From: a bacterium
GTDB lineage: Bacteria > Patescibacteriota > Minisyncoccia > Moranbacterales > UBA2206
Assembly: GCA_030654225.1 (NCBI GenBank)
Contig: JAURXY010000034.1
Location: 25,184 to 89,183, forward strand
Reading direction: 5' to 3'
DNA: 64,000 bases
The stretch's first letter is position 1, and the number at the start of each line of letters is the position of its first letter. Shown in pieces: positions 28,663 to 64,000 of this stretch. Below the pieces are notes generated by a model. That model was not told the DNA's origin. It saw nothing but the letters and a program-made list of their open reading frames with translations, and did not search any database. A program made the translations under genes and the position numbers.

Positions 28663-28671
28663 AAAATTTTT

Positions 28672-36938: not shown

Positions 36939-36943
36939 TTAAT

Positions 36944-42280: not shown

Positions 42281-42511
42281 ATGTTTAGTATTGTTAAATT
42301 TGCCATTTGGATTGTCCTTTTTTTGGCCGCAACCTATTTTGTGCTTAAATTTTTCGGTTATGATGTTAATCGGGAATATTTTTCCGGCACCAGAAAGCAA
42401 TGTGAAGAAAGATTAAAAGAATGCACTAATGATATTTTTCATCAAGGCGTCGATAACGCCAAATGCGATTTTAATTGCGTCGACCCGAAACTAATAATTA
42501 AAAAGAACTAA
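42281..42511 (+). CDS. Small membrane-anchored Cys-containing protein
   Basis: 76 aa; N-terminal TM then four Cys (CEERLKEC...CDFNC). Lies immediately upstream of, and 1 nt from, the GT2 gene. Confidence 0.4.
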   Translation: MFSIVKFAIWIVLFLAATYFVLKFFGYDVNREYFSGTRKQCEERLKECTNDIFHQGVDNAKCDFNCVDPKLIIKKN

Positions 42512-42512
42512 T

Positions 42513-43496: not shown

Positions 43497-43499
43497 TTC

Positions 43500-44618: not shown

Positions 44619-44636
44619 AAAATATAAAGCAATAAA

Positions 44637-46595: not shown

Positions 46596-46606
46596 ATTTC
46601 ATTTTT

Positions 46607-46966
46607 ATGCAACAAAAAAAGATTATTCTCTTCCTATTGATTACCTTCATAGCCAGCTCCGTTTGGCTTTTTTATGTGAGTGACAAAATTCTTGATCCGA
46701 ATGTTGGGAAAAATTGGTGGTCAATCTCTTTTTCCGATTCTAAATCAGAGAATTTAGATTTCGTAATTGAAAATCATAGTGATAAGGATAATTTTCAATG
46801 GGTTGTTTTGTCTGGCAATGATACAATCAAAGAAAGCGATGTGACTATCAAAAAAGGAGAGATCAGTTCAGTTAATGTTAATTTTGAAGATAGCTATAGA
46901 AACAAAAAAATTACCATTCAAGTAACTTCAGGAGATGAGAAAAAAGAAATTTATAAAAACTTATGA
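46607..46966 (+). CDS. Hypothetical secreted or membrane-anchored protein
   Basis: 119 aa; N-terminal TM/signal. Confidence 0.4.
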   Translation: MQQKKIILFLLITFIASSVWLFYVSDKILDPNVGKNWWSISFSDSKSENLDFVIENHSDKDNFQWVVLSGNDTIKESDVTIKKGEISSVNVNFEDSYRNKKITIQVTSGDEKKEIYKNL

Positions 46967-48081: not shown

Positions 48082-49570
48082 TTTTGAAAATTTAAACGAA
48101 AACAAAAAAAAGTTCCAAACGGAAAAAATGAAAGTGCCGGCTATTTTTTTTATGAGTGAAGATTTAATACCTAAGGATGATTCTTTCGAAAAATTAGAAG
48201 ATATTGCTTCTAATCAAGATACACTTTTCCGTAATTTAGTCGCTATGCCTGATGTTTGTTCAAAGCCAGGCAGGAAAAATGCTTCCGGAACAACTATAGT
48301 CAGCGAAAATTACATACTGCCTCAAGTTAATGACTCAGACCCAAACTGTGGAATGCGTCTAATTAAAACTAATTTAACTGAAGATAATCTAACTAGTAAT
48401 GATATTGAAAATATTTTCAAGGAATTAGTAAGCACCGTTCCAACTAAAAAATTCGTCGGAACCAAAGTCCCTTTTAATGTTGTCGTTGATATTTGTCGAG
48501 AAGGAACATCCGCCATAATCAAACATCTCGGAATCAAAACAAAAAACGAACTCGAAAACACTCAGGATGGTGGTAATTTTTTCGGACGTATTATGGAAAG
48601 AAAAGATATTTTTGATGTAATACCAAAGCTGTACTTGTTTTTTGCGCGGTATCGCTTGGGAATTTTAGGCGCAGCTGGAAACCATTTTTCAGATCTTATG
48701 AAAGTAGATGAGATTATAGATTCCGAAATTGCCAAAAAAATGGGAATAGAAAAGGGACAGTATCTCTTTATGATTCACACTGGTTCAGGAATTTTGGGAC
48801 AATACACAATGTATACTCATACTGCCAAGAAACGCGAGCATCTTTCACAAGCTCTTATGGTAACACTTGGAAAAATGACTTTCAATTCCAGAAAAAAAGA
48901 AACTTATAAAAAGATGCAACAAAAAATAAAATTGCATATGTCAGGAGAAGAATCACTGCTTAGATATGACGGCAACGGAGAGGATGGAGAATTATATATG
49001 AACGCGCGAGCAGCCGCTTCTAATTTCGGCACTGCCAATAGAGCTGTTATCACTCACAATATCTCCGAAACGATAAAAAAAGTTCTTGGGCGTGACCCCG
49101 AAATGGATTTGATCTATGACATGCCTCACATTTCAATTTCCAAGGAAGAACATTTTGGGCGTGAAGTTTTTGTTCACCGAAGCAACACTTCAAGAGCATA
49201 TGGCCCTAGCAAGATGAAAAGTCATCCGATTTACGGCGAAACCGGCGAACCTGTCTTTATTCCATCTTCAATGGCCACTGACGCCTACATTTGCGTCGGA
49301 ACAGATGAAAATCAAGACAGTTTTTTCTCAGCTCCTCATGGCACCGGCAAAGGAACTAACGATAATGAAAAAACCATTGCCAATAAAGATGACCTTTTCG
49401 CCAAAATGAAAGAAAAAAATATCCGTCTTTACAATGCCCAATCTTCCATTGTTATCAATCAAGATTCTTCTCGATACAAAAATATAGACAAAGTAATTGA
49501 AGGTATTGAAGCCAACAAAATCGCTCACATTGTAGCAAAAATGAAACCCGTAGCGGTTATAATGTATTAA
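48056..49570 (+). CDS. rtcB: RtcB-family RNA ligase (divergent)
   Basis: 'AMPDVCSKPG', 'DPNCGMR' and 'HTGSGILGQ' are RtcB-like motifs, with C-terminal 'KMKPVAVIMY'. The start may instead be at 48128 (MKVPAIFF). Confidence 0.65.
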   Translation: MKKYMNNYNFENLNENKKKFQTEKMKVPAIFFMSEDLIPKDDSFEKLEDIASNQDTLFRNLVAMPDVCSKPGRKNASGTTIVSENYILPQVNDSDPNCGMRLIKTNLTEDNLTSNDIENIFKELVSTVPTKKFVGTKVPFNVVVDICREGTSAIIKHLGIKTKNELENTQDGGNFFGRIMERKDIFDVIPKLYLFFARYRLGILGAAGNHFSDLMKVDEIIDSEIAKKMGIEKGQYLFMIHTGSGILGQYTMYTHTAKKREHLSQALMVTLGKMTFNSRKKETYKKMQQKIKLHMSGEESLLRYDGNGEDGELYMNARAAASNFGTANRAVITHNISETIKKVLGRDPEMDLIYDMPHISISKEEHFGREVFVHRSNTSRAYGPSKMKSHPIYGETGEPVFIPSSMATDAYICVGTDENQDSFFSAPHGTGKGTNDNEKTIANKDDLFAKMKEKNIRLYNAQSSIVINQDSSRYKNIDKVIEGIEANKIAHIVAKMKPVAVIMY

Positions 49571-49575
49571 ATTTT

Positions 49576-50160
49576 ATGAAACTAATCACAATTTCTGGTC
49601 TTGATGGCTCAGGGAAATCAACTCAAATTGAAATGCTAAAAAAGCATTTAGAATCGCAAAGTAAGCGGGTTTTTTATTTTCATGCTGGGCAATTTAGTAT
49701 TAGTAAGATTTATAATATTTTAAGACCACACAAGATTATTACTGGCAAACATCATGAAAGCGTGGTCAAAGCTAATGTTTTTCAAATTTATCTTCGTCGT
49801 TTTGCATTACTGATAGATTTGGTGCGCTTTAAGTTATTACATAATAAATTACGTAATAAAAATTATGATTATATTTTGAGTGACCGGTATTTTTATGATA
49901 GTGTGGTTAATATTGAATTTTTATGTAGGGAACGCATATATGCGTTCCCTACGTGGATTGTAAATCCCGATTTGGCAATCTATCTTCAAACTGATCCGGA
50001 AATAATAATGCAAAGAGAAAGAAAGCCTGATCAAGGAATTGATTATCTCAAAAAGAAAAAAAATATATATGACGCAAAAATTCTCGATTGGAATATGAAA
50101 CTAATTAATGGCAATCGAGGCCAAGAAGAAATTTTTAAAGAAATAAAATCATTTTTATGA
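49576..50160 (+). CDS. tmk: Thymidylate kinase-like P-loop kinase with an in-frame palindromic insertion
   Basis: 194 aa; 'ISGLDGSGKSTQ' P-loop and 'LSDRYFYDS' DRY motif. The palindrome at 49925-49952 encodes 'RERIYAFP'. Confidence 0.6.
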   Translation: MKLITISGLDGSGKSTQIEMLKKHLESQSKRVFYFHAGQFSISKIYNILRPHKIITGKHHESVVKANVFQIYLRRFALLIDLVRFKLLHNKLRNKNYDYILSDRYFYDSVVNIEFLCRERIYAFPTWIVNPDLAIYLQTDPEIIMQRERKPDQGIDYLKKKKNIYDAKILDWNMKLINGNRGQEEIFKEIKSFL

Positions 50161-51638
50161 AAAACAATTTAGTAAAATCAGTTTTCTGGGTAACGGTTTC
50201 GGAAATTTTATTTAATCTTTCCGGTTATGTAATCCATTCTGTTGCTGGAAGAGTTTTGGGTCCGGGTGATTATGGTCGCTATGGAATTGTAATAACACTC
50301 ACTACGATGATTATTATTCTTGTTGGCAATGGCGTGCCAACTGCTATGGCAAAATATTTGAGTGAAGTTTTTGAATCCAATCCGATAATGATTGGTGTAA
50401 TTAAGAAAAAAGCTATCATTCTCCAATCCATTATTATTGGAACGCTAACCGTAATATTTTTTCTTTTAGCGCCAGTTTTGGCATGGGCGTTAAAAGATCC
50501 AACACTTACCAATCTTTTTCGTCTTTCCACTTTGATTATTCCTGCTTTTGCTATGTCCTCTTTCTATTTTTCCTATTACACCGGTCTTCACAAGTTCAAC
50601 ATTCAATCTCTGCTAAAAACTCTGCGCTCGCTTTTTAGAGTGACTATTATTGTTGCTCTCGCCTATTTCTACAAAGTGCCCGGAGCAATCTTGGGTTATG
50701 TCATCGCTCCGTTTCTAACTTTTATTATCGGTTGGTGTATTGATAAATTTAGAGTTAAAGCAGAAATTGAAAATCAAATACAACTTAATCCCAATAAAGC
50801 AGAAATAGTTTTTGAATATAAAAAACTTATGCGTTATGCTTGGCAAATCGTTATTTTTTTTCTCGCCTACGAGCTTTTTATCAGCATTGATTTATATTTA
50901 GTAAAAGGAATTTTGAGAAATGATTATTTAACCGGAATATATAATGGCGCCCTTACAGTTGGACGCATCCCCTATTATGTTTTTTATGCCCTCACCGTTG
51001 TTCTTCTTCCGGCAATTTCCAAAAGCACTTCCGAGAACAACCATGCAAAAACCAGCCAGATCATTGGAAATTCCTTGCGCTTAATGTTGATTATTTTGGC
51101 CCCCGCTATTATCTTGATGGCCTATTTTTCTCAACCAATAATAAAGATTTTTTATAGCGCTAGATATTTGGCGGCTGCTGAACCGATGGCGGTTTTGGTT
51201 TATGGGGTGGGATTTTTGACAATTTTCTATGTGATGAGTTTTGTTATGAATGGAGCGGGAAAAACTAAGATCCCGATGATTATTTCTATTATTGGCTTGA
51301 CTTTGAATTCTGTTTTGAACTATTTTTTCATTCAAAAATTTGGACTTATGGGTTCCGCTTGGGCCACAACAATTTCTTCATTTCTAGCCATGCTTCTAAT
51401 GGTCTATTTCCTCTATAGAGAGTTTGGGGTTGTAATTAGTATAAAGAGCCTTCTAAGAGTTATTTTCTCCTCAGGAGGGCTTTATTTGACTTCCACACTC
51501 TTCCCTAATGAAAATTATTACTTTATTATCTGGTCTATAATTCTGCTATCTTTCTATTTTATTTTTCTTTATATACTAGGAGAAATAAAAAAAGATGATA
51601 TTTCATATTTCAGAAATATCATCCTTAAGAAAAAATAA
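50157..51638 (+). CDS. Polysaccharide flippase (Wzx-like, MOP superfamily)
   Basis: 493 aa; about 14 TM helices; N-terminal 'VFWVTVSEILFNLSGYVIHSVAGRVLGPGDYGRYG'. Confidence 0.7.
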   Translation: MKNNLVKSVFWVTVSEILFNLSGYVIHSVAGRVLGPGDYGRYGIVITLTTMIIILVGNGVPTAMAKYLSEVFESNPIMIGVIKKKAIILQSIIIGTLTVIFFLLAPVLAWALKDPTLTNLFRLSTLIIPAFAMSSFYFSYYTGLHKFNIQSLLKTLRSLFRVTIIVALAYFYKVPGAILGYVIAPFLTFIIGWCIDKFRVKAEIENQIQLNPNKAEIVFEYKKLMRYAWQIVIFFLAYELFISIDLYLVKGILRNDYLTGIYNGALTVGRIPYYVFYALTVVLLPAISKSTSENNHAKTSQIIGNSLRLMLIILAPAIILMAYFSQPIIKIFYSARYLAAAEPMAVLVYGVGFLTIFYVMSFVMNGAGKTKIPMIISIIGLTLNSVLNYFFIQKFGLMGSAWATTISSFLAMLLMVYFLYREFGVVISIKSLLRVIFSSGGLYLTSTLFPNENYYFIIWSIILLSFYFIFLYILGEIKKDDISYFRNIILKKK

Positions 51639-51642: not shown

Positions 51643-53262
51643 CTATTTAACCTTCAAAGCAAAAACTGAAAATTGGCGAAAGATTGAACATTTTTCAATG
51701 TCATATTTTTTTGCTATCTCTTGGGAAAGCTCGCATTTAGCCGAAGCATTTTTAAGATAGAATAGCTTGTCTCCTGAGTTTAATTTAATTTCTTTTCTAA
51801 GTTGAATTATTTCAATTTGTTCTTTCCCTGCTAAAAACTGAAGTGAGCGAAGAGATTTGAAAAGATAACCAGCTTGCGCATCAATGTAGGCTGTTTTATT
51901 TTCTGAATTATTTTTGATAAAATCAACGATATATTTCCCCTCTCCTAAAGTCAGATAATCAAAATCTCCATTGATTTCTCTTCCGCCATATTGCAAATCT
52001 TTATAGGTATAGAATATTTTTTGCAAATTGAAAGATGAAAAAATGGCAATAATAGCTATCGCAACCCACAAGCCTTTTTTGAATTTTTTCTCAAAAAAAT
52101 TCAACCAAAATCCCAAGATCAGCAATGGAATAAATAACAACGGCAAAAAGAAACGAACCGCCAATTCAGTGGCCCAAGTTATATAGAAAAGAAAAGACAA
52201 TATTATATAACTAGATATAAGCCCCAGGAAAAGTTTTTTATTCCTATCGCTTTCTTTTATAGCTTTTTTAAATAAGAGAAAATATCCACCCAAAGAAAAT
52301 ACTAGCGACAAAATAATCAAAACAACAAAACTTGCTTTTTCTCCTATGGTCATCCTTGTTCCATCTAACTTTTTGAAAATTTTCCAATCATTTTCATACC
52401 CGCATTCATTTTCATTGCCTAATGATGTGAGGATGTGATTATTGGTTTTGATATGACAAGAAAAATTCAAAAGCAAATTATTCGCCCAACTTCCATTTCG
52501 TTCATTCTTGCTGGTAATTCCCAAAATAAACTGATATGAATTAGCCCCACCGCTTCTAACTTCACTTACAATCTGGGGAATATTAACAAAAATAGTGGAC
52601 GCCACAATGATTACTATTGCCGTTGCTGAAATTATTTTTTTCTTGAAAAAGATAATCGCCGTGAAAAAAGAAAGCACTGGAAGGATTATCAAAAGCGAAG
52701 TATGCAATTGAATGCAAATTCCCAGAGATATTCCTGTCAAAATTGCCCAGGCAATTTTTCTTTTTTGTAAAATTGCCAAATTATAAAGTGCGTAGATAAA
52801 AAGCATCACAAAAAACGGGGTGGAATTTGGATTCCAAGCAAAACGAGAAAATTTAATCGCAAAATATGAAATTGAATACAGCCAAGCCAAAGCCAATGCG
52901 ATGGGAATTTTGAAATAAATTTTTGCTAAAAGAAAAAACATCCCGATTGACAAAATAGAAAAAAATAAATCCGGATAAGCTACTTTTTCCGGCTCTGCCC
53001 CAAATATTTTCGCTGAAACTAACTGAAAATAATAGAATGCTGGGCCAAGCAAAAATTCTGTTCCGCCTGCTCCAGGACCAAGATCTGGCAATCTGTTATT
53101 TTCGCTTAAATTTTCTATCAATTCCACATCGCGCGATTGATCCATATTGAATCTGAGCCAATCAGAAAAATGATAGGTACGCAAAAATATTCCCACTAAA
53201 ATAATCAGCATCAATAATATTGCGACTTGATGTTTTTTTATTTTTCCAAAAAAATTATTCAT
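51643..53262 (-). CDS. ArnT/PMT-like membrane (GT-C fold) glycosyltransferase, subfamily A, paralog 1
   Basis: 539 aa; N-terminal 'FLRTYHFSDWLRFNMDQSRDV' loop motif and 'GPAFYYFQ'. Polytopic; 'FAWNPNS'. Confidence 0.65.
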   Translation of the reverse strand: MNNFFGKIKKHQVAILLMLIILVGIFLRTYHFSDWLRFNMDQSRDVELIENLSENNRLPDLGPGAGGTEFLLGPAFYYFQLVSAKIFGAEPEKVAYPDLFFSILSIGMFFLLAKIYFKIPIALALAWLYSISYFAIKFSRFAWNPNSTPFFVMLFIYALYNLAILQKRKIAWAILTGISLGICIQLHTSLLIILPVLSFFTAIIFFKKKIISATAIVIIVASTIFVNIPQIVSEVRSGGANSYQFILGITSKNERNGSWANNLLLNFSCHIKTNNHILTSLGNENECGYENDWKIFKKLDGTRMTIGEKASFVVLIILSLVFSLGGYFLLFKKAIKESDRNKKLFLGLISSYIILSFLFYITWATELAVRFFLPLLFIPLLILGFWLNFFEKKFKKGLWVAIAIIAIFSSFNLQKIFYTYKDLQYGGREINGDFDYLTLGEGKYIVDFIKNNSENKTAYIDAQAGYLFKSLRSLQFLAGKEQIEIIQLRKEIKLNSGDKLFYLKNASAKCELSQEIAKKYDIEKCSIFRQFSVFALKVK

Positions 53263-55048
53263 TCATATTTATATCACTGGTTAATTCCTCATCTTCTTCA
53301 ATAGTTTGTTTTTTTATCCCAAAAACATCCTTCCAAAAAAGTCGATCAGTTTTGGAATATTTTTTGTTAAACCTAAAATTCTTGGAAATGTTTCTCTCTG
53401 GAAAATTTATCTCATAAACTGAAATTTGTCCACAATCTTGAGAAGACAATATTTCAACTGGCACCCCATATTTTTTTTCTAAGGCTTTTTTTGGCTCCGT
53501 GTCAGAAGGAATAGTTGCAAAATATTGGGCGTTAGGATTATCATTCAAACTCAAAGTTTCATAAACAAAATTAGGATCATTTTTTTGCGCCAAAATATAT
53601 TTTATCGGATTTATATGCTCCGGCTTAGTATAAAAATAACTCGTATCGCCAGTTTTTCTTTTTGTATATATAAAATCGGCCACTTTTTGCAGTTCACTCA
53701 AGGTCACACCATCTTTTGTTTTCAAAATCAAAGTGCGGTTTATTTCCACATCCTTGATTTGAGACTGCTTCATTTCCGAAAACCACGCCAGCGTTCCATA
53801 CACATTCAAGCTAAATATAATGATTGCGACTGCCGAAATAGGATACGCTGATTTTTTCGGCCATCTTTCTTGAAAAAAATTAAATACTACTCCGCTCAAC
53901 AAAAATGGCACAGCAAAAACCAAGATAAAAAATCTTGGACGAAGTTGAAAAGAAACTGGGAAAGTAAAAATGAAAAACACACCTATCCACAAAAACAACA
54001 GTGCCAAAAAATTTCTTCTGCTAGAATCTTTTTCTCTCCTTAGGGCTCGTGCCGACAAAATTATTCCGGAAGAAATAAGGATAATTGTGAGAATTGACGG
54101 CAAATCATTATTTGTGCCATCAAACGGCTCACCTTCTCCGCAAAAAGAAGTAGTGATGAGACAATAATATTTGGTATTCTCAGAAAAATTTTTGGAAATT
54201 TTTTCTGCAAATGATTTGTCTTTTGCTTTGGAACTCAAAGCTTGAATGAAATTTCCGGCATTTTCCCCTTTTCTCATCACATCACTTATAATCACAGGCG
54301 AATAAATCAAAGCAAAAACAGAAATAAAAACCAAAGAATAAATGGCTATTTTTTGCAAAATATTTTTTTGGAATATATCCTTGATTTTTTGCAATTTCCA
54401 AAACTGACTATGAAACAAAATCAAACATCCGGAGATAGCGGTGAGCACAAAGAAACCAAAAAAATGCAGTTGTGATCCGATAGAAAGTCCGAGTACCCAA
54501 ATAATGAGCCAACCTATTTTTCTTTTGAGCTTTTGTTCACTCAGAAACTTCAGGAGTCCAAAAAAAGTCAATAAGGCAAAAAATTGCAACGGATTAGGAT
54601 TCCAAGCAAAACGAGAATATTGAATCACAATGAAAGAAAAAGCATACATCGCCATAGTAAGCAATGAAATATTTTTGGAAAAATAAATTCTCGCCAGAAA
54701 ATACAGCAGGACTATCGCCAAGATTGAAAAAAATAAATCCGGATAGGCAAAAACTTGCGGGGCAGTAGAGTTGGAAATGGCACCCGCGATATATTGAAAA
54801 TAATAATAGGCGGGACCGAGTCTCAAAAATCCACTATCCACTTCGGTTGCACCGGCTCTTGGCCCCAAAAGCGGAAGCATCATTGGTCCTTCATTTATCG
54901 CATGACTAACGAGTTGCGCATCACGCGATTGATCCATTTTGAAATATAGCCAATCGGAAAAATTGTAAAAACGGAAAGCAAAAGCACCGATAACTATCGC
55001 TAGCATAATAATCGTAACGGCATATTTTTTGGTTAGTAAGTTTTTCAT
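53255..55048 (-). CDS. ArnT/PMT-like membrane (GT-C fold) glycosyltransferase, subfamily A, paralog 2
   Basis: 597 aa; 'FYNFSDWLYFKMDQSRDAQL', 'GPAYYYFQ' and 'FAWNPNP'. Confidence 0.65.
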   Translation of the reverse strand: MKNLLTKKYAVTIIMLAIVIGAFAFRFYNFSDWLYFKMDQSRDAQLVSHAINEGPMMLPLLGPRAGATEVDSGFLRLGPAYYYFQYIAGAISNSTAPQVFAYPDLFFSILAIVLLYFLARIYFSKNISLLTMAMYAFSFIVIQYSRFAWNPNPLQFFALLTFFGLLKFLSEQKLKRKIGWLIIWVLGLSIGSQLHFFGFFVLTAISGCLILFHSQFWKLQKIKDIFQKNILQKIAIYSLVFISVFALIYSPVIISDVMRKGENAGNFIQALSSKAKDKSFAEKISKNFSENTKYYCLITTSFCGEGEPFDGTNNDLPSILTIILISSGIILSARALRREKDSSRRNFLALLFLWIGVFFIFTFPVSFQLRPRFFILVFAVPFLLSGVVFNFFQERWPKKSAYPISAVAIIIFSLNVYGTLAWFSEMKQSQIKDVEINRTLILKTKDGVTLSELQKVADFIYTKRKTGDTSYFYTKPEHINPIKYILAQKNDPNFVYETLSLNDNPNAQYFATIPSDTEPKKALEKKYGVPVEILSSQDCGQISVYEINFPERNISKNFRFNKKYSKTDRLFWKDVFGIKKQTIEEDEELTSDINMNE

Positions 55049-55095
55049 AATTTGCTATTTTAGTTTAAGCCAAAAATTATAATTTGGCAAAAAAA

Positions 55096-56721
55096 TTATT
55101 TGGGGTCATTTTTAATTTTCAAAATTGTAACATCATAAATCCGATGAAATTTTTCGACTTCACCATATTTTTTATATGACATTCCGACATAGAAGTTTTC
55201 CGATGATTCATTCACTGCAACAAATATCGGTAAATTTTTATCTCTCTCTATTCCTTCATTCAGCATAATAATTTCAATTTTTGCATCGGATAAAAAATAT
55301 TTTATTCTACCAACAAAACGACCCAGATAAACACTCTGTCCATCCAATTGGATTCTCTTATATGAGCCAGCTTCAGAAACTATGTATTCAGCAATTTCCT
55401 TGGCTTGATTCATGGTTCCGTCAATCATATTACTGGGAATATTAGTAGCATAAGTGCGAAAAGTTAATAAACAAAAAAATAAATTATACCCGATTAAAAT
55501 AGACATCGTCATCCAAGCCAAAAATTTAGTCGCCACCATATTTTGACTTAACAAAAATTCAAGCCATAGACCTAACAATATAAATGGAATAAAAATTAAT
55601 AAAATAAAATATCTCAAACTAACTTCAGCTCCAAATGGCACAAAAACACTCAATAGCGATAAGCTAAACAACACTAAGATAATATACTTACCATTTTTTT
55701 CTTTATCTTTCTTTATTTTTTTATATATAAAAAAATAACTCACACCCGAAAATATCACGACCGCAATAATCTTAGCTACATACAAAAACCAATCCACAAA
55801 ACCATCGTTTCTTCTTTCGAGTCGTTTTAGATATTTATCTGCAAGCGGAAAATCACAACTCTCTTGATTTGCGTATGGCGCTAGAATTTTCGCATTTGAT
55901 TGAACCTGACAAGAAGCAATGAAGAGTGCATTTTTCCAAAGTGAATTCTGATCATCAGATTTATATACGAGAGCATTTTTAAAATCCAAATAATTACCCC
56001 TTCCGGTTTTTATCTCACTTACAATCTGAGTATTATTTAAAATTAAAACGATCAAGGCAATTAACACCATACCTGAAAATTTAATCCGTTTATTTTTGAA
56101 CAAATATATTGCCAATATCAAGGATGCGAATGGCATACCGAACAAAAGCAATGTATGAAGTTGCATACTTATGCCAAGAGAAATTCCAATTAAAATAATC
56201 CAGGGCATTTTTTTCCTCTCCAGACTATTCCATAATTTAAGCACGGAATAAACAAAGAGCATATCAAAAAACTGAGCGGAGTTAGGATTCCAAGCAAATC
56301 TTGAATATTGCACAGTGAAAGATGCTATTGCATATAGTGCAGTCAATATCAATGAAATATTTTTTTCAAAATATTGTCGTGCTAAAAGATACAACAATGG
56401 GATAGCCAGAATACCAAAAAACAAATCTGGATAAGCCATCGTGTTAGGCGACACTCCAAAAACTCTTGCACTTAAATATTGAAAATAATAAAAAGCCGGA
56501 CCAAGTTTGAATAATGTACCACCAGCTACAGGACCGAGTAGCGGAATTTTATTTTCTTCAATCATACTTCGTACTACGGAAGCGTCTCTGGCTTGATCAG
56601 AATTAAATTTTAGCCAATCGGAAAAATGATAGGTGCGAAGAAAAATACCAACGATTATAATAATAACTAATGCCCAAAAATAAATAGATATTTTTCTAAT
56701 TTTTTTTATCAAATCATCCAT
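55096..56721 (-). CDS. ArnT/PMT-like membrane (GT-C fold) glycosyltransferase, subfamily A, paralog 3
   Basis: 541 aa; 'YHFSDWLKFNSDQARDAS', 'GPAFYYFQ' and 'FAWNPNS'. Confidence 0.65.
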   Translation of the reverse strand: MDDLIKKIRKISIYFWALVIIIIVGIFLRTYHFSDWLKFNSDQARDASVVRSMIEENKIPLLGPVAGGTLFKLGPAFYYFQYLSARVFGVSPNTMAYPDLFFGILAIPLLYLLARQYFEKNISLILTALYAIASFTVQYSRFAWNPNSAQFFDMLFVYSVLKLWNSLERKKMPWIILIGISLGISMQLHTLLLFGMPFASLILAIYLFKNKRIKFSGMVLIALIVLILNNTQIVSEIKTGRGNYLDFKNALVYKSDDQNSLWKNALFIASCQVQSNAKILAPYANQESCDFPLADKYLKRLERRNDGFVDWFLYVAKIIAVVIFSGVSYFFIYKKIKKDKEKNGKYIILVLFSLSLLSVFVPFGAEVSLRYFILLIFIPFILLGLWLEFLLSQNMVATKFLAWMTMSILIGYNLFFCLLTFRTYATNIPSNMIDGTMNQAKEIAEYIVSEAGSYKRIQLDGQSVYLGRFVGRIKYFLSDAKIEIIMLNEGIERDKNLPIFVAVNESSENFYVGMSYKKYGEVEKFHRIYDVTILKIKNDPK

Positions 56722-56723
56722 AT

Positions 56724-58382
56724 TTAATTTTCTAATTTATAAATTATAATTCTTCCAAAAACTTTATGCCTTTCTATTTTATACATAGCAAAATAATTAT
56801 CTGCCGCATCTTTCAATTTATCAGTTATATAAAATACTGACTTTGAGGGAGGTGCATCGTTTTTTTTATAATCAAATTCAATGATATCGACATTTTGTCG
56901 TTGAGCTATATACTTTAATGGTGGCAGTAGCGAGAATCTATCACCAGAAATATAAATATCTTTTTGGTTATTTGAATTATCAACTAGGTATCTTATTATC
57001 GATTCAAGCTCTCCTAAAACAGCATAGTGATAATATGCATCGCTTTTCACCCCAGCTTGAAACTTTTTAAATTCATTTTTTATGGAAACTATATTTGTGA
57101 TTATAATAAATAAAATAATAGCAAAGGAAATTACTAAATACTTTTTTGATAGTTTATTGTTTATAAAATCAATCAGAAAACCTAAAAATATAAGTGGGAC
57201 AAAAAAAGTTGGGCTAAAATATCTAAACGAATCAAAGCTTTTGCCAATAATAAAAAGCATAAGTAAAAAGAAAAATGCAATAAATATTGTTATCAATCCC
57301 AGAAAATATTTCTTACCATTATCCTTTTCTCTCCAGAGCAAATAAAGCAAAGAGGCGTATCCAAAAATAGCAAATAGTGCTTGCAGAAAAATGAGGATAA
57401 TAAAATCAGCGGACTTAAGCTCTGCTATTAATGTCTTGGATTTCTTATTTTTCAATATATCACTATATGAAAAATTACAATTTTCACTACCATAAGAAGA
57501 TAGTATGTATAAATTAGCCTCTGCGTGGCAATCAATGTTGTTGACTAATTTTCCTAAAAAATTTTCATTATTGACCCGCTCTGATTTGAAAAGAATTCTT
57601 GTGTTAGAAAAATCATTTTTATATTCACTTATCAAATAACCTAAATTCAAAATAATAACAATCAGTAAGGCGACAGCCAATTTTTTCCATATACTGCGAT
57701 TGCACACAAGTAAATATGAAAAAACTAAGAGGGTGACTGCTGAAAATAAAACGAGAAGCATAATATGAAGCTGGATACCAATTCCAATAGCAATTCCAAC
57801 AGCAACTACCCATATCCAATTGGTTTTTTCTTTATTTAATAGTAATTCCAATAACGAAAACAAAAATAGAATTGTAAAAAAGGGAATCAAGTTAGGATTC
57901 CAAGCAAAGCGAGAATAGCGGATAGAAAAAAAAGATATAGTATAAAGACTAACTAAAATAAGTGTGGTATTTATACTAAAATATCGTTTTAAAAAAATAA
58001 ATAATAATGGGATAGATAAAAAAGAAAAAAATAAATCAGGATATCCGAGCTTTTCTGGTTCGTTTCCAAAAAAATTAGCAGATAAAATTTGAAAGTAATA
58101 ATAAATTGGACCGATGTGAAATAGTTCGTCTTTCGAATCGCTTGATTTTCTCATTGTTGGTCCAAGCAGAGGCCAGCTGGTACTTCCATCCAAAACATCA
58201 CTCACTAAAATTGCATCCCTCAATTGATCATTTTCAAAATGAAGCCAATCATGAAAATTATATGTTCGCAAAAAAATACCTATCAACAAAACAGCCAAAA
58301 GAAACCATAAATATTTTGGGATTGTTTTTATTCTGTTTAATAATTTACTATAATTTATATTTAATTTCATTCTAGGATGCAT
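56724..58382 (-). CDS. ArnT/PMT-like membrane (GT-C fold) glycosyltransferase, subfamily A, paralog 4
   Basis: 552 aa; 'YNFHDWLHFENDQLRDAIL', 'GPIYYYFQ' and 'FAWNPN'. Confidence 0.65.
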   Translation of the reverse strand: MHPRMKLNINYSKLLNRIKTIPKYLWFLLAVLLIGIFLRTYNFHDWLHFENDQLRDAILVSDVLDGSTSWPLLGPTMRKSSDSKDELFHIGPIYYYFQILSANFFGNEPEKLGYPDLFFSFLSIPLLFIFLKRYFSINTTLILVSLYTISFFSIRYSRFAWNPNLIPFFTILFLFSLLELLLNKEKTNWIWVVAVGIAIGIGIQLHIMLLVLFSAVTLLVFSYLLVCNRSIWKKLAVALLIVIILNLGYLISEYKNDFSNTRILFKSERVNNENFLGKLVNNIDCHAEANLYILSSYGSENCNFSYSDILKNKKSKTLIAELKSADFIILIFLQALFAIFGYASLLYLLWREKDNGKKYFLGLITIFIAFFFLLMLFIIGKSFDSFRYFSPTFFVPLIFLGFLIDFINNKLSKKYLVISFAIILFIIITNIVSIKNEFKKFQAGVKSDAYYHYAVLGELESIIRYLVDNSNNQKDIYISGDRFSLLPPLKYIAQRQNVDIIEFDYKKNDAPPSKSVFYITDKLKDAADNYFAMYKIERHKVFGRIIIYKLEN

Positions 58383-58464
58383 AAATATACTATCTTTACA
58401 ATAAGCCTATTTTTAATTATATTATATACAGATAGATTGTCAAAGTTTAATCTCAATAAAAATT

Positions 58465-60342
58465 ATGTCTAAAAAAACAATTCATATCCTAATAATTATT
58501 GTCGTTATTTGCACTAATCTTTTTTTTGGGTTTCCTAGAATTTCCCACTTTACTGCTGGCGATGAAACACTTTGGTCTTATGATCGAGTTCCGAAATTTT
58601 GGCGTAGTGTCGCCAAGGGAAACTGGCGCGGAACAAACTTGTGCGATAAGCCTGGCATAACTCTGGCAATGATTTCCGGGGCTGGATTGCCTTTCATTCC
58701 AGATCCGAGAGATTATGAAAAATTAACTCGACTGCCAAAAACGCCAGAGCAACTGGCTATGATTGAAAAAATTTATTTTTCTCTTCGATTGCCAGTCTAT
58801 CTTTTTACTCTCGCCTCGCTATTTATTTTTTATTTCTTACTCAAACGACTACTCTCAGCAGAAATCGCACTGTTATCAGTCATATTTATCGGGCTATCCC
58901 CAATCCTTCTAGGCATTTCACTTATTGTCAATACTGATGCAATTCTATGGATTTTAATGCCTATCACTTTGGTTAGTTTTCTAATTTACCAAAAAGAACC
59001 TACTTCACCGGCAGACAAGAGTAATCAAAAATTTCTCTATTTAACTGGCTTTCTGCTTGGACTAGCAATTCTTGATAAATTTGTAGCTAATTTTCTGTTT
59101 CCATTTTTGTTAGTTTTGGTTTTTGTTAAATATATTTTGAGTAATTATGTCAAAACAGAAGATAAGATTGAATATTTCAAAAAAGCAATGCGTGATTACT
59201 TAATTATCATTGCAATTGCACTACTAACTATTTTTCTTTTTTATCCATCTGCTTGGATCAAACCCAAAGAACTGCTCAACACTACCATCTATAGTCTGGC
59301 ATTTGCAAAAATATGGCCACTAATCATTGGCACTATCGCAATTATTTCAGCGGATATTTTTCTTTGGAAAAGCACAGTTTCCAGAAAAATTTGTGATTTT
59401 TTTTCAAACCACAAAACAGCTTTCGTTAGAATTTTAAGTGTTATTATTTTAGTCGTAATTGCTTTTACCCTCCTAAACACCTATGTAGGAATGAAATTTT
59501 ACAATTTTGAAAAAATTCTTTCGGATCCAAAAGATGGAGAATTTTTTGAAAATTTTTTCTCAGCTTTTTACCCCTTGCTTTTTGGTCTTACCCCGCTAAT
59601 CTCCTTATTATTTTTGTCATCAATAATATTACTAACAAAAATAAAAAGCACAGAGTTAACAAAAAACATAGGCTCGATGCGCATCCTTCCTTTTATTTTA
59701 TTCGTACTAATCTACTATGTCGCCAATTCAATTTCAAACACGGGGTCAACTATTCGATATCAAATCGTAAATTATCCCATTGCCTCAATAATTGCTGTTA
59801 TAGGATTATGTGAACTAATTGAGATTAAATCAATTAAAAAATATTTTTCTGGAATAAGATTTTATTTTCTTATCTTTTTTATTTTTATAATTTCCATTAT
59901 TTCCCTCGCATTAACAAAACCATTCTTTCTTGCCTATTCTTCAAAACTATTGCCCGCCAAATTCATAACCAATCTGAAGGATATGGGTGATGGTAGCTGG
60001 GAGACATCCCAATATCTAAATAGCCTGCCCAACGCCAACCAACTTAGTATTTGGTCGGACAAAAAACAGGTGTGTGAAAAATTTGTCGGCAAGTGTAACG
60101 CCAGTTCCAACCAGAAATATATTGGAACTTCAAAATTTGATTATTTAGTTTCATCCAGAGGCGGAATAATAAATATCCCAACTTCAAAAAATCAAAAGTC
60201 CGCACTAAGAATTGGTGCTGACATCGTTGACACAAAGAAACTTTATTCACCAAATGAATATTATGACTTTAAAGTAAACATTGATAATAGAGAAAATGAT
60301 TTTATCAAGGTTATTAATCCTACTAAGATACTATCTAATTAA
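58465..60342 (+). CDS. ArnT/PMT-like membrane (GT-C fold) glycosyltransferase, subfamily B, paralog 1
   Basis: 625 aa; 'GDETLWSYDRVPKFW' DE-loop motif, 'CDKPGITLAMISGAGLPF' and 'SPILLGISLIVNTDAILW'. Confidence 0.65.
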   Translation: MSKKTIHILIIIVVICTNLFFGFPRISHFTAGDETLWSYDRVPKFWRSVAKGNWRGTNLCDKPGITLAMISGAGLPFIPDPRDYEKLTRLPKTPEQLAMIEKIYFSLRLPVYLFTLASLFIFYFLLKRLLSAEIALLSVIFIGLSPILLGISLIVNTDAILWILMPITLVSFLIYQKEPTSPADKSNQKFLYLTGFLLGLAILDKFVANFLFPFLLVLVFVKYILSNYVKTEDKIEYFKKAMRDYLIIIAIALLTIFLFYPSAWIKPKELLNTTIYSLAFAKIWPLIIGTIAIISADIFLWKSTVSRKICDFFSNHKTAFVRILSVIILVVIAFTLLNTYVGMKFYNFEKILSDPKDGEFFENFFSAFYPLLFGLTPLISLLFLSSIILLTKIKSTELTKNIGSMRILPFILFVLIYYVANSISNTGSTIRYQIVNYPIASIIAVIGLCELIEIKSIKKYFSGIRFYFLIFFIFIISIISLALTKPFFLAYSSKLLPAKFITNLKDMGDGSWETSQYLNSLPNANQLSIWSDKKQVCEKFVGKCNASSNQKYIGTSKFDYLVSSRGGIINIPTSKNQKSALRIGADIVDTKKLYSPNEYYDFKVNIDNRENDFIKVINPTKILSN

Positions 60343-60357
60343 ATCTTGCTTTGTTTT

Positions 60358-62253
60358 ATGAAAAATAAAAATATTCCCATTGTTCTAATTTTTATCAGCA
60401 TCATCACCTCTAGCTTGTATTTTGGATTACCGCGTCTCAAAAATTTTTCCGGCGTGGATGAACCGTATTGGTCATATGAACGCGTGCCAACCTTTTGGAA
60501 AGCCATCAAAAATATGAAATGGGAAAAGACTAATATTTGTGACAAGCCAGGGATACCTCTGGCAATAATTTCTGGCACAGGATTGCCATTTATAAGTGGC
60601 AATATTAAGGAGCTAAAAAATCTACGCTATAGCACAAGAACACTCCAGCAACGCGAAGATATAACTGACCTCTATTTCTATCTCCGTCTTCCCATTTTTC
60701 TTTTCACATTAGTTATACTTCCACTTTTTTACTATCTTATTAGAAAATTATTAGGAACTGAAACGGCTGGCTTTGCGCTTATATTCATTGGCTTTTCCCC
60801 TATTCTTCTGGGGATTTCACTCATAATAAATTCAGACGCAATGCTTTGGATTTTTACAGCACTCTCAATTCTGAATCTTTTTGTTTTTTTAAAAAACAAT
60901 AAAAGGAGGTACTTATTGTTTTCAGGTTTTTTTCTCGGACTTTCAGTTATCACTAAATATGTTGCCAATATACTTTTCGTATATTTCTTCTTAATATTCT
61001 TTTTAGAATACATATTTTTTGCTTATAATAAAATTGCCATTGGCAAATATCTTAAATCCGCCCTAGTCAATTATCTCGTCCTTTCCGTCACCGCCCTTGC
61101 TACCGCTTTCGTTTTTTTTCCAGCCACTTGGGTAGATTTTTCAGTTCTTATAAATGCCACCATCGGCAACCTCGTTTTTTCTTCAATATGGCCGATTTTT
61201 GTTGGAATTATGGGTATACTAACTTTAGATATATTAATTTTTAAAACAAAATTTTCAAACTTTCTGTTTAATTTTTTGATTAAATATAAACAAGTATTGA
61301 CAAAAATTATCAGTATCCTATTTCTTATCTTTGCCATAATTGTTTTTCTTCATATATTTTTTAAGATTAATATTTTTGACATTCAAGGAATGGTATCCTC
61401 TCCTAAGGGCATTGGTCAGGATTTGGACACCAGAGATCCCCGATTAGAAAATCTCATATCAGCTTCAAAAGGAATTGGGATCGCAAATATATCCCGCGAA
61501 TATATTGGAGCAATTTTAGCTGATTTTTATAGCCTACTTTTTAGTATCTCTCCAATCGTTCTCTTGGCTATTCTATTCGCAATTATTAATCTAGCACGCA
61601 AAAAAGAAATGACCCGTAATTCCATAGTTGCCCTATATATAATAATTTTTATCCTTCTTTTTTATTTTAGTTCGACTTTCAATAATGTGATTGCCACTGT
61701 GAGATATCAAATTATAATATATCCCTTAGCTTTTATTTTGGCAGCGATTGGGATTTCAGAATTTATGAAGATTGAAATAATTAGAAAGTATATAAATTTA
61801 CCAATCGCATATGCATCATTAATTATCCTGCTTCTCATAAGTCTCTTCTTCGTCAAGCCACACTATCTTGCTTATTCAAGTGAAATTCTACCCGATGCAT
61901 TTCTTGTCAATCTTAAGGGTATGGGAGAAGGTAGTTTTGAAGCTACAAATTATCTAAATAGTCTTCCAAACGCACAGAATATGATCATCTGGACAGACAA
62001 AGGAACTGTATGCGAAAGATTTGCTGGACTTTGCTATACGGACTTCAAACCAAAAACACAACAAAAAAATATTGACTATTTTGTAGTTTCCACAGATAGA
62101 AAATTAAGAACCTTGAAATTAATTGTAAACCCGTCCGATTTACAACAAGCCTACGAAAGCAAAAATCCCGCTTTTGAAGTTTTGATAAACAATAATCCTA
62201 ATAATTTTGTAAAAGTTGTAAAAAGTGATATTATAATCAAATTAAACAAGTAA
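60358..62253 (+). CDS. ArnT/PMT-like membrane (GT-C fold) glycosyltransferase, subfamily B, paralog 2
   Basis: 'VDEPYWSYERVPTFW', 'CDKPGIPLAIISGTGLPF'. Start at the internal ATG 60358 (MKNKNIP); the ORF opens at 60346. Confidence 0.65.
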   Translation: MKNKNIPIVLIFISIITSSLYFGLPRLKNFSGVDEPYWSYERVPTFWKAIKNMKWEKTNICDKPGIPLAIISGTGLPFISGNIKELKNLRYSTRTLQQREDITDLYFYLRLPIFLFTLVILPLFYYLIRKLLGTETAGFALIFIGFSPILLGISLIINSDAMLWIFTALSILNLFVFLKNNKRRYLLFSGFFLGLSVITKYVANILFVYFFLIFFLEYIFFAYNKIAIGKYLKSALVNYLVLSVTALATAFVFFPATWVDFSVLINATIGNLVFSSIWPIFVGIMGILTLDILIFKTKFSNFLFNFLIKYKQVLTKIISILFLIFAIIVFLHIFFKINIFDIQGMVSSPKGIGQDLDTRDPRLENLISASKGIGIANISREYIGAILADFYSLLFSISPIVLLAILFAIINLARKKEMTRNSIVALYIIIFILLFYFSSTFNNVIATVRYQIIIYPLAFILAAIGISEFMKIEIIRKYINLPIAYASLIILLLISLFFVKPHYLAYSSEILPDAFLVNLKGMGEGSFEATNYLNSLPNAQNMIIWTDKGTVCERFAGLCYTDFKPKTQQKNIDYFVVSTDRKLRTLKLIVNPSDLQQAYESKNPAFEVLINNNPNNFVKVVKSDIIIKLNK

Positions 62254-62291
62254 AGAATAAACATTTTTTATTAATCACTAATTAAAAGAAC

Positions 62292-64000
62292 ATGAAAGAA
62301 AAAATAGCGGTTATTCTAATTTTTCTAAGCATACTAACCTCCAGCCTATATTTCGGACTTCCTCGCCTTAGGAATTTTTCTGGCGTGGATGAACCATATT
62401 GGTCGTATGATCGCGTTCCTCAATTTTGGAACAGCATCAAAACTCAAAATTGGAAAAGTACCAACATTTGCGACAAACCAGGAATACCGCTAGCGATAAT
62501 TTCCGGCACTGGGTTGTCATTTATCTCCCAAGATATCAAAGAATTGGGCAAACTTCGCTATGAACCAAAAACTGTTTCCGAACTCAACGCTATTCGCGAT
62601 ATTTATCACAAACTTCGTTTTCCGGTTTTTATTTTCACGCTTCTGGTCTTGCCGATTTTCTATTTTCTCATCCGAAAATTACTAGGAGAAAACACAGCTA
62701 ATTTTGCCTTGATTTTCATCGGTCTCTCCCCTGTTCTGCTTGGAATTTCACTCATCATCAATTCTGATGCCATACTTTGGATCCTCACCGCCCTTTCAAC
62801 CTTGAGTTTATTCAACTTTTTCAAATCAGATAATAAAAAATATTTGATTTTGTCCGGTTTTATTTTGGGTCTTTCCGTCATTACTAAATATGTAGCCAAT
62901 ATGCTTTTCATCTACTTCTTTTTGCTTTTCTTTTTAGAATATATCTTTTATGCTCACCAAAAAATAGAAGTGGGAAAATATCTAAAACAATCTTTTCTAA
63001 ACTATCTCACTCTATTTGCTAGCGCCATGGCAACAGCCTTCATTTTTTTCCCGGCTACCTGGGTGAAAATTTCCGTCCTCTTCAACGCCACTATTGGAAA
63101 TCCGGTTTTTTCTTCAACTTGGCCGATTTTTATGGGAATAATTTTGCTTTTAGGCGTTGATACATTCCTTTTGAAAAACAAAATATTCTCCTATATTTTC
63201 AAATTCCTAATTCGCTACAAAAGAATTCTTTCCCGCTCAATTGTTGCAATTTTTGTCATTTTTACCATCATTGTCTTTTTGCATGTATTTTTAAAAATAA
63301 ATATTTATAATATTCAAGAATTTATTTCTTCACCCAAAGGAATCGGCATTGATCTTGACACGATTGACGCCAGCGTAAAAACTATCACTTCCACTCAAAA
63401 AATGGGTTCTTTTTGGATTATCGCCAATCAATATGTCGGCTCAATGATTGCTGATCTATACAGCTTGATGTTTAGCATTTCCCCGCTTATCTTGTGCCTT
63501 ATACTTGCGCCGATATTTTTCATTTTTCGCAAAAAAGAAATAGACCGAGATCTGATCACGGTGATCTATATAATTATTTTCATTTTATTTTTCTATCTCG
63601 GTTCCGCCCTTAATAATGTCACCACCACTGTGCGCTATCAAATTATGACTTACCCTTTGGTTTTTGTTATGGCAGCCATCGGAATGGTTCAACTTCTGAA
63701 ATATATAAAAATAAAAGAAAATTTGAAATTTCCCGTGGCTTATATTTTCTCTATCTTAATTCTCCTAACTAGTCTCTTTCAAATCAAGCCTGACTTTCTC
63801 GCTTATGCTTCGGAAATATTGCCGAAAGACTACATCGTCAATTTGAAAGGAATGGGTGAAGGCAGTTTTGAAGCAGGAAGCTATCTCAATACTTTGCCCA
63901 ACGCTCACGAGATGACAATTTGGTCGGACAAGGGAGCGGTGTGCGAAGCTTTTGTTGGCAAGTGTTATATTGATTTCAAAAACAAAACTTTCAAAGAAAA
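62292..64000 (+). CDS. ArnT/PMT-like membrane (GT-C fold) glycosyltransferase, subfamily B, paralog 3 (3' end beyond window)
   Basis: Read by eye from the ATG at 62292: MKEKIAVILIFLSILTSSLYFGLPRLRNFSGVDEPYWSYDRVPQFW...CDKPGIPLAIISGTGLSF... The frame is open to the window end. Highly similar to paralog 2. Confidence 0.65.
   Translation, partial: MKEKIAVILIFLSILTSSLYFGLPRLRNFSGVDEPYWSYDRVPQFWNSIKTQNWKSTNICDKPGIPLAIISGTGLSFISQDIKELGKLRYEPKTVSELNAIRDIYHKLRFPVFIFTLLVLPIFYFLIRKLLGENTANFALIFIGLSPVLLGISLIINSDAILWILTALSTLSLFNFFKSDNKKYLILSGFILGLSVITKYVANMLFIYFFLLFFLEYIFYAHQKIEVGKYLKQSFLNYLTLFASAMATAFIFFPATWVKISVLFNATIGNPVFSSTWPIFMGIILLLGVDTFLLKNKIFSYIFKFLIRYKRILSRSIVAIFVIFTIIVFLHVFLKINIYNIQEFISSPKGIGIDLDTIDASVKTITSTQKMGSFWIIANQYVGSMIADLYSLMFSISPLILCLILAPIFFIFRKKEIDRDLITVIYIIIFILFFYLGSALNNVTTTVRYQIMTYPLVFVMAAIGMVQLLKYIKIKENLKFPVAYIFSILILLTSLFQIKPDFLAYASEILPKDYIVNLKGMGEGSFEAGSYLNTLPNAHEMTIWSDKGAVCEAFVGKCYIDFKNKTFKE

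Follow-up and report, generated by a model that had tools for sequence, protein, structure and literature searches.

At the right-hand end of the 64,000-nucleotide stretch analyzed here (the window), which belongs to an uncultivated bacterium of the GTDB lineage Moranbacterales, lie seven genes that encode putative membrane glycosyltransferases of the GT-C type. They correspond to seven long open reading frames (ORFs), none of them interrupted by internal stops, that fill the region from position 51643 to 64000 and make up a locus of approximately 12.5 kb (Table 1). Four of the genes (M1 to M4) are found on the minus strand and three (P1 to P3) on the plus strand, in the order M1-M2-M3-M4|P1-P2-P3. 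The original prediction, made from the letters of the DNA alone, described these arrays as convergent. In fact, the minus-strand genes are located to the left of the plus-strand genes and both sets begin at a common 82-bp spacer, from which they run outward, so the arrays are divergent.

The gene junctions are tight and operon-like in both arrays. The start of M1 overlaps the end of M2 by 8 nt, and the other two M junctions are gaps of 47 and 2 nt. In the P array, P1 and P2 are separated by 3 to 15 nt, depending on whether P2 is read from its ATG or from an alternative TTG at position 60346 (which yields 635 residues), and 38 nt lie between P2 and P3. The latter gene runs off the window. Its full length (636 residues) is given by the NCBI protein P0017, which opens with the exact 569 residues encoded here, so the gene would end about 200 nt past position 64000; judging from synteny with related genomes, the array most likely ends with P3. 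The AT-rich spacer contains, on its minus strand, a perfect TTGACA-16-TATAAT element (58443 to 58416), placed back-to-back with a plus-strand site (58395–58423) that agrees with 10 of the 12 consensus positions; both are promoter-like by consensus match only. At the other end of the M array, a hairpin with a 14-bp stem followed by a T-run is found on the minus strand (51591–51626), within the 3' end of the neighboring flippase gene and just downstream of the M1 stop codon. This structure may be the terminator of the M operon.

Table 1. Coordinates of the seven GT-C genes and of the other features of the window considered in this work
Feature	Coordinates	Strand	Description
M1	51643–53262	−	539-residue PMT_2-type GT-C glycosyltransferase; last gene of the putative minus-strand operon
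M2	53255–55048	−	597-residue PMT/PMT_2-type GT-C glycosyltransferase
M3	55096–56721	−	541-residue PMT_2-type GT-C glycosyltransferase; modelled representative of the M family
M4	56724–58382	−	552-residue PMT_2-type GT-C glycosyltransferase; first gene of the putative minus-strand operon
Spacer	58383–58464		82 bp, AT-rich, from the M4 start codon to the P1 start codon
P1	58465–60342	+	625-residue PMT/PMT_2-type GT-C glycosyltransferase; first gene of the putative plus-strand operon
P2	60358–62253	+	GT-C glycosyltransferase, 631 residues from the ATG; modelled representative of the P family
P3	62292–64000 (window end)	+	GT-C glycosyltransferase, 569 of 636 codons inside the window
Wzx/MurJ-type (MOP) flippase	50157–51638	+	Convergent with M1, 4 nt between the stop codons
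GT2 with two C-terminal transmembrane helices	42513–43496	+	GtrB/DPM1/ArnC/AglJ-type architecture; candidate donor-making enzyme
Second GT2	36129–36938		Pfam/NCBIfam
LCP glycopolymer ligase	36944–38116		Pfam/NCBIfam
GT4	38199–39392		Pfam/NCBIfam
Wzy_C/O-antigen-ligase-like protein	39356–40957		Pfam/NCBIfam
GT4	40958–42160		Pfam/NCBIfam
GT4	43500–44618		Pfam/NCBIfam
DUF1616+DUF6541 protein	44637–46595	+	Polytopic membrane protein, 652 residues; inside the GT4 cluster
119-residue ORF	46607–46966	+	N-terminal hydrophobic segment; between the DUF6541 protein and a GT4 gene
GT4	46963–48081		Pfam/NCBIfam
RtcB RNA ligase and thymidylate-kinase-like gene	48056–50160	+	Between the GT4 genes and the Wzx flippase
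TagA/WecG-family transferase	21478–22236	+
RmlC and RmlB	3817–5431	+	dTDP-rhamnose pathway
Fifth GT4	170–1336	+
DUF4012 protein	2215–3582	+

Two GT-C families in one locus

All seven proteins exceeded the gathering cut-off of the Pfam PMT_2 profile (PF13231; 26.1 bits), with scores ranging from 31.9 to 47.1 bits (M1, 31.9; M2, 32.1; M4, 32.2; P1, 45.1; P3, 47.1), and hydropathy analysis predicted 8 to 13 transmembrane (TM) segments in each of them. This bears out the proposal of seven membrane glycosyltransferase paralogs at this place. Indeed, the NCBI proteins identical to P2, P3 and M3 are named “glycosyltransferase family 39 protein”. The cut-off of the related Pfam PMT profile (PF02366) was passed by M2 (47.7 bits), P1 (39.6 bits) and P2, and not by M1, M3, M4 or P3. 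When the seven proteins were scanned against NCBIfam, only sub-threshold matches were obtained (Agl23 and the LA_3751/2 family), with none to the ArnT equivalog model.

The two sets of genes encode clearly different proteins. Within the M family, pairwise identity is 31–39% (31–37% for M1 against M2–M4, and 33–36% for M4 against M1–M3), while in the P family P1 is 37–39% identical to P2 and P3, and the latter two share 62% of their residues. In contrast, none of the M–P pairs was significant by BLASTP among the seven proteins. Hidden Markov models (HMMs) built from 60 homologs of each family matched, within the window, the members of their own family only, and detected no further M or P copies elsewhere in it. 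The comparison of both family alignments with hhalign yielded a probability of only 25%, in the C-terminal region. The division into two divergent subfamilies therefore stands, and the M and P families are linked only through Pfam PMT_2 and their fold. The sequence motifs originally quoted for each subfamily are also present, with small deviations (RDV in M1, FHDWL in M4 and GDETLWSY in P1).

Information about the fold was derived from AlphaFold2 models of M3 and P2, which are helical bundles followed by a small C-terminal alpha/beta domain, distinct in each family. The model of P2 resembled ALG12 (score 22.1), ArnT (21.4), AglB (19.3), ALG9, Pmt4 (18.5), Pmt2, STT3B, AftA and PglB, among others, and that of M3 matched ALG12 (23.7), Pmt4 (23.2), AglB (23.1) and ArnT (21.9), among others. 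AftA, AftB, AftD, PimE and EmbA were all found among the structural matches of the modelled proteins. The proposed GT-C fold is thus corroborated by similarity to solved GT-C enzymes for one modelled member of each subfamily. PDB sequence searches with the family profiles gave nothing significant, with no match for one family and Pmt2 as the best match for the other (E 0.15).

The models also made it possible to place the conserved acidic residues. According to the AlphaFold2 secondary structure, both D34-E35 of the P family and D42 and D46 of the M family, each invariant in 42 homologs, come directly after TM1, and acidic residues in this first loop are present in all seven proteins of the window. 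The D-E pair is a feature of the P family only. In addition, the C-terminal domain of the P family contains an invariant pair of cysteines (C552 and C559), which would fit an extracytoplasmic location of this domain. Conservation is modular: identity in the N-terminal 200 or so residues reaches 44–49% in the M family and 53–60% in the P family, while the C-terminal half of the M family is its least conserved part (18–27%). Such a pattern would be expected if the paralogs share their donor chemistry and differ in their acceptors.

One way to read these features is that the seven proteins are protein O-glycosyltransferases, similar to the PMT or Pgf enzymes, that modify surface or secreted proteins (for example, pilins, S-layer proteins or adhesins), each paralog being devoted to a different protein or sequon. 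The Pfam PMT matches of M2, P1 and P2 and the presence of Pmt4 and Pmt2 among the best structural matches speak for this possibility, as does the invariant D-E right after TM1 in the P family, since PMTs carry D-E at this place. However, the PMT matches of the three proteins cover only profile positions ~80–240, and ALG12, ArnT and AglB score equal to or above the PMTs as structural matches. The Pfam scan found no MIR domain in any of the seven proteins, a result that is not decisive because bacterial PMTs also lack it. Further points on both sides come from the genes that accompany the arrays and are considered below.

Ancient duplications and a variable array

Homologs of the seven proteins were found overwhelmingly in Candidatus Moranbacteria (Moraniibacteriota), a lineage of the Candidate Phyla Radiation (CPR), where they are annotated as “glycosyltransferase family 39 protein” or as “Ara4N transferase-like”, the latter being the name that many of them receive from JGI. 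For comparison of their surroundings, 12 loci (L001–L012) were collected in a scan of GTDB species representatives and a thirteenth (L013) was taken from an ENA contig. A divergent M|P array with five to eight GT39-type genes recurs in seven of them (L002, L003, L005, L006, L008, L009 and L013), and L012 contains five such genes in a looser arrangement. A few contigs and proteins with family members (L003, L011; P0119, P0203) bear the names “uncultured Bdellovibrionales”, “Bathyarchaeia archaeon” or “Fimivivens”, probably through mistakes in binning or labelling.

This recurrence bears on the trivial explanation that the array results from the collapse or expansion of repeats during assembly, or that it consists of non-functional pseudogene copies. 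No point supporting it was found. On the contrary, none of the seven reading frames is disrupted, the copies have diverged much too far for mis-assembled repeats, the residues of the putative catalytic loop are conserved, and the arrangement appears in independent assemblies from NCBI, ENA, JGI and UBA. An assembly artefact is excluded by the latter fact, and this explanation as a whole deserves practically no credence.

The original prediction also held that the genes arose by recent tandem duplication, in a newly expanded array that drives rapid diversification of surface glycosylation. Array content does differ among fairly close relatives (L001 and L002), pointing to gene flux. However, P2 and P3, the most similar pair, are only 66.6% identical at the DNA level, and identity among the paralogs of each family ranges from 31 to 62%. 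Neighbor-joining trees and reciprocal BLAST, the phylogenetic check that had been suggested, showed that every paralog of the window groups with the orthologs of other genomes and not with its neighbors. Thus, orthologs were identified for M1 (81% identity in L002, 55% in L013), M2 (83% in L002, 64% in L013), P1 (85% in L001, 72% in L013) and P3 (91% in L002, 80% in L001), with M1, M2 and M3 together at 55–64% in L013; M4 has only weak orthologs in relatives (38–42%). Moreover, L013 keeps separate orthologs of P1, P2 and P3 in the same order (72, 71 and 66% identity). Given that each paralog is closer to orthologs from other genomes than to its neighbors and that P2 and P3 are so distant as DNA, the duplications are, on the evidence of these comparisons, ancient and predate the splits between Moranbacteria species. 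The antisense ORFs that had been taken as a sign of recency (60732–61013 and 62660–62911) do exist and resemble each other, but their likeness is a by-product of the 62% protein identity between P2 and P3. A recent expansion is therefore largely refuted and must be regarded as highly improbable.

How the arrays differ is best illustrated by L002, which is organized as M1-M2b-M2|YfhO-P1'-P3 and is 80–87% identical to the window at the nucleotide level in the shared genes. It lacks M3, M4 and P2, and has instead an extra M2-type paralog and a YfhO-family gene; L001 is devoid of M4 and P2. Membrane proteins of the YfhO family (~705 residues) are encoded in the middle of the array in L002 (5958–8072), L003 (5731–7848) and L008 (5826–7946), and genes of the DIE2/ALG10 family (~408 residues) are found between the arrays in L005 (4850–6076), L006 (4839–6065) and L009 (4779–6107). 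Because such genes occupy the array center in relatives, the locus is a hotspot for several kinds of GT-C-type enzymes. The variation looks like the differential retention, loss or replacement of old paralogs rather than new duplication.

Candidate donor-making enzymes, flippase and surface-glycan genes

A membrane-anchored GT-A enzyme is encoded near the GT-C genes both in the window and in its relatives, although it is not the same one. In the window, the GT2 at 42513–43496 matches Pfam Glycos_transf_2, has TM helices at residues 252–270 and 282–300, and gives full-length, sub-threshold NCBIfam matches to AglJ, ArnC and PgfS. This GT2 had been put forward as the partner of the arrays. Its architecture is indeed that of a polyprenyl-phosphate sugar synthase, but the partner conserved beside the P genes of relatives is a different GT2, a protein of 312 residues that is only 26% identical to the former. 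The 312-residue enzyme also has two C-terminal TM helices, and it aligns from end to end with ArnC (E 3e-51) and PgfS (E 7e-44), reaching 174 bits against the NCBIfam ArnC model, whose cut-off is 529. Its gene is immediately upstream of, and co-directional with, a P gene in L007 (9051–9998) and L010 (5309–6259), and about 440 nt upstream of the P gene in L011 (1231–2190). In L001, L002 (13743–14681), L003, L008, L009 and L012 it is located on the strand opposite to the nearby P gene, adjoining the dehydrogenase described below where this is present. A 97%-identical ortholog, P0393, falls outside the window and is taken to be on the source contig. In Moranbacteria, P-type GT-C genes have the 312-residue ArnC/PgfS-like GT2 as their consistent genomic partner. 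Its conservation (75–97%) is well above that of the GT-Cs, as would befit a constant donor combined with diverging acceptor enzymes.

The gene next to M1 encodes a protein that matches Pfam Polysacc_synt, Polysacc_synt_3 and MurJ and, below threshold, NCBIfam MurJ, SpoVB and Wzx. As a Wzx/MurJ-type protein, it is a candidate for flipping lipid-linked sugars or repeat units. Among the relatives, its ortholog adjoins the array in L008 only.

Further upstream, a cluster that spans positions 36129 to 48081 comprises genes for an LCP glycopolymer ligase, a Wzy-like protein, the two GT2s and several GT4s, while TagA/WecG, dTDP-rhamnose and additional glycosyltransferase genes are found toward the left end of the window (Table 1). 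A functional link between this cluster and the seven GT-C genes is suggested by their proximity. Inside the cluster, the 652-residue DUF1616/DUF6541 membrane protein was considered as an eighth GT-C. This is unproven, given that hhalign revealed no relation to M or P and the PDB search yielded no sequence match. It may, speculatively, act as a polymerase or as a further enzyme of lipid-linked sugars. The adjacent 119-residue ORF has no Pfam or NCBIfam match.

Further clues about the glycan came from the relatives. In four of them, the last P gene is immediately followed, on the opposite strand, by one or two genes for a TuaD-like UDP-glucose 6-dehydrogenase (L001, 5437–6771; L002, 12320–13654; L008, 11970–13283; L013, 13893–15251 and 15489–16829). 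Such a gene lies within 3 kb of the last P gene in L009, where it follows another M2-type gene, and in L012, where it follows two non-GT39 genes. The position of this enzyme hints at a uronic-acid donor or polymer. In addition, an exhaustive profile search recovered 373 P-family clusters (E ≤ 1e-30), and seven of the nine long P-family homologs examined (P0242, P0245, P0251, P0313, P0321, P0356 and P0376) carry a C-terminal GH28 domain, that is, a polygalacturonase-like beta-helix. Another long homolog, P0254, carries a metallophosphoesterase (calcineurin-like phosphoesterase), and many other long relatives have an unexplained N-terminal extension of about 150 residues. The GH28 fusions and the adjacent dehydrogenase are circumstantial, and suggest a polysaccharide substrate, possibly one that contains uronic acid.

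These neighbors bear in turn on the notion of protein O-glycosylation introduced above. The conserved GT2 partner matches PgfS from end to end, in agreement with it. However, neither pilin nor S-layer genes were observed close to the array, whether in the window or in the loci of relatives, the neighboring genes are those of polysaccharides and wall polymers, and both the GH28 fusions and the dehydrogenase next to the array in relatives suggest that the substrate is a glycan. Taken together, it is unlikely that the seven proteins are devoted to protein glycosylation.

A second alternative is that they are ArnT-like enzymes that add charged sugars to a membrane glycolipid or a lipoteichoic-acid-like anchor, thereby tuning surface charge. 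This idea draws on the name “Ara4N transferase-like” (Ara4N, 4-amino-4-deoxy-L-arabinose) given by JGI to many homologs, on ArnC being the best NCBIfam match of the conserved GT2 partner, and on the presence next to the arrays of relatives of UDP-glucose dehydrogenase, with which the Ara4N pathway starts. Against it, no ArnT equivalog match was obtained, ArnA-, ArnB-, ArnD- or ArnE/F-like genes were not seen in the window or in the loci, and seven conserved paralogs exceed the needs of a simple modification of lipid head groups. It is also generally held that CPR bacteria lack lipopolysaccharide (LPS) and lipid A, which further counts against this alternative. Overall, we consider it very unlikely, more so than the modification of proteins.

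For the sake of completeness, the window also encodes, at 28657–29796 (plus strand), a PD-(D/E)XK (Cas4-like) nuclease with a C-terminal DUF7376 domain, and three ORFs lack any Pfam match: 5473–7008 (minus strand, 511 residues), 1275–2210 (plus strand, 311 residues) and 14930–15646 (plus strand, 238 residues).

A proposed extracytoplasmic glycosylation system

The known systems that most resemble this locus are the multi-component transmembrane glycosylation systems of Gram-positive bacteria, such as CsbB/GtcA/YfhO, GtlA/GtlB, CsdA-F/CflA, GacI-L and GtsA-C. In these systems, a membrane-linked GT-A enzyme makes an undecaprenyl-phosphate (C55-P)-linked sugar, a GtrA- or Wzx-type flippase moves it across the membrane, and a polytopic GT-C of the PMT_2 or YfhO type transfers the sugar, outside the cell, to teichoic acids or wall polysaccharides. 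Many of these GT-Cs carry a PMT_2 domain, and in a 2021 review (PMC8035078) every PMT_2-type GT-C listed for Gram-positive bacteria has one of these two kinds of polymer as its target. The analogy with three-component systems of the GtrB+GtrC, CsbB+YfhO or ArnC+ArnT type that had been drawn for the arrays is thus a reasonable one. The locus shares with the Gram-positive systems the PMT_2-type GT-Cs, the GtrB/ArnC-like GT2s with C-terminal TM helices, the LCP and TagA wall-polymer genes and a candidate flippase of the Wzx type, as is GacK in group A Streptococcus. There are also differences. The known systems combine a single GT-A with a single GT-C, whereas here there are seven GT-Cs (five to eight in relatives) with one or two candidate GT-As nearby, the GT-Cs belong to two families that cannot be related by sequence and share one divergent array, no GtrA-type flippase was found, and the host is a CPR bacterium.

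Other systems offer a precedent for the multiplicity of paralogs. In the Rgt system, several ArnT-like GT-C paralogs, partly in tandem, act on different acceptor positions using one polyprenyl-phosphate-linked galacturonic acid donor that is made by a single GT2. In Rhizobium leguminosarum, RgtA-D and RgtE reportedly carry out galacturonosyl transfer to the LPS core and lipid A, as is said to have been described by Brown et al. in 2012. The ArnC-like GT2 and the UDP-glucose dehydrogenase beside the P genes, as well as the GH28 fusions of P-family relatives, are reminiscent of this arrangement. Nevertheless, the Rgt acceptors are the LPS core and lipid A of a diderm, while a uronic-acid donor in the present case is a hypothesis, and no specific sequence relationship is detectable beyond PMT_2. 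Moranbacteria are not known to produce LPS.

Many GT-C paralogs are also present in mycobacteria and corynebacteria (EmbA/B/C, AftA-D, PimE and MptA/B), including the tandem embCAB array, and the Emb and Aft enzymes build a wall heteropolysaccharide outside the membrane from decaprenyl-phosphate-linked monosaccharides. The likeness extends to the structural matches of the window models to AftA, AftB, AftD, PimE and EmbA. In contrast, these proteins belong to other CAZy families, are larger and contain carbohydrate-binding domains; the proteins described here may either polymerize or decorate. As for ArnT (GT83) and PMT (GT39) themselves, the D-E pair of the P family and the NCBI label of family 39 recall them. 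They differ in that no ArnT equivalog match and no arn operon accompany the seven proteins, which lack the MIR domains and, in the PDB searches, come no closer to PMTs than the Pmt2 match cited above; the distinct small C-terminal alpha/beta domain of each family also sets them apart.

All these observations can be integrated in a model in which the seven GT-Cs constitute a multi-GT-C version of the Gram-positive systems that probably acts on a wall-linked glycopolymer. The neighboring LCP, TagA, Wzx, Wzy-like, GT4 and Rml genes, the dehydrogenase of relatives, the YfhO-like GT-C genes inside their arrays and the GH28 fusions favor such an acceptor. In this model, M4-M3-M2-M1 and P1-P2-P3 would be transcribed as two divergent operons from the short promoter spacer. 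In the first step, membrane-anchored GT2s would use a nucleotide sugar to glycosylate polyprenyl phosphate on the cytoplasmic side of the membrane; candidates for this role are the GT2 of the window and, more consistently, the 312-residue ArnC/PgfS-like enzyme encoded just outside it. The lipid-linked sugar would then be flipped, possibly by the adjacent Wzx-type protein. In the third step, the GT-C paralogs would transfer the single sugar to an acceptor outside the membrane, using the acidic residues of their first extracytoplasmic loop (D-E in P, D..D in M). Acceptor sites or linkages would probably differ from one paralog to another, and the acceptor itself is most likely a wall-linked glycopolymer, possibly with uronic acid among its components.

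Several points weigh against this model. The donor sugar, the acceptor and even the catalytic activity of the seven GT-Cs are inferred, and the scores of the GT2 genes fall well short of all NCBIfam equivalog cut-offs. The relatives examined do not conserve the linkage of the GT-C genes to the GT4/LCP cluster found upstream of them, the RtcB and thymidylate kinase genes interrupt the glycan cluster in the window, and the GH28 fusions occur in proteins of relatives and not in those of the window. With regard to the flipping step, the Wzx gene may serve a Wzx/Wzy pathway instead, and no GtrA-type flippase was found among the scanned proteins, including the 119-residue ORF. Finally, a protein acceptor is possible, given that the P family displays the D-E motif characteristic of protein O-mannosyltransferases and that PgfS, which is among the best matches of the conserved GT2, presumably belongs to a protein-glycosylation machinery.

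The wall-glycopolymer model can be carried one step further. Moranbacteria, and perhaps other CPR of the Parcubacteria group, might possess a branched wall heteropolysaccharide of complex structure, possibly rich in uronic acid (teichuronic-acid-like), assembled largely outside the membrane by seven or eight GT-Cs of two ancient families that would be fed by one or two polyprenyl-phosphate monosaccharide donors. This extension is tentative, and we regard it as conceivable rather than probable. If true, it would represent a CPR counterpart of the mycobacterial arabinogalactan/lipoarabinomannan pathway and a previously undescribed envelope polymer, and the differential retention of paralogs between close relatives would create surface diversity.

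Part of what is described here was already known, since the genes are annotated as GT39-family members and the proposed mechanism is of a known kind. What stands out is the number of GT-C paralogs clustered here, the coexistence of both families within a single divergent unit, and the fact that they are conserved in a lineage usually considered genome-reduced. No account of the array turned up when the literature was searched for GT39/ArnT/PMT_2 expansions in CPR, Patescibacteria or Moranbacteria. For Peregrinibacteria, one paper mentions about eight genes that carry the annotation dolichol-phosphate mannosyltransferase (PMC4736985).

Little is known about what makes up the CPR/Patescibacteria envelope, even though hosts and phages are met at the cell surface. 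CPR are episymbiotic, genome-reduced bacteria whose genomes are typically near 1 Mb. If this size applies to Moranbacteria, more than 1% of the genome would be spent on seven extracytoplasmic glycosyltransferases. The M and P families add diversity to the poorly characterized bacterial PMT_2 group, and the ArnC-like GT2, the UDP-glucose dehydrogenase and the P- and M-type GT-Cs are concrete candidates for finding out the identity of the glycan. Throughout the class, the seven proteins have been maintained as separate groups of orthologs, which implies that the surface glycan is elaborate and important for fitness.

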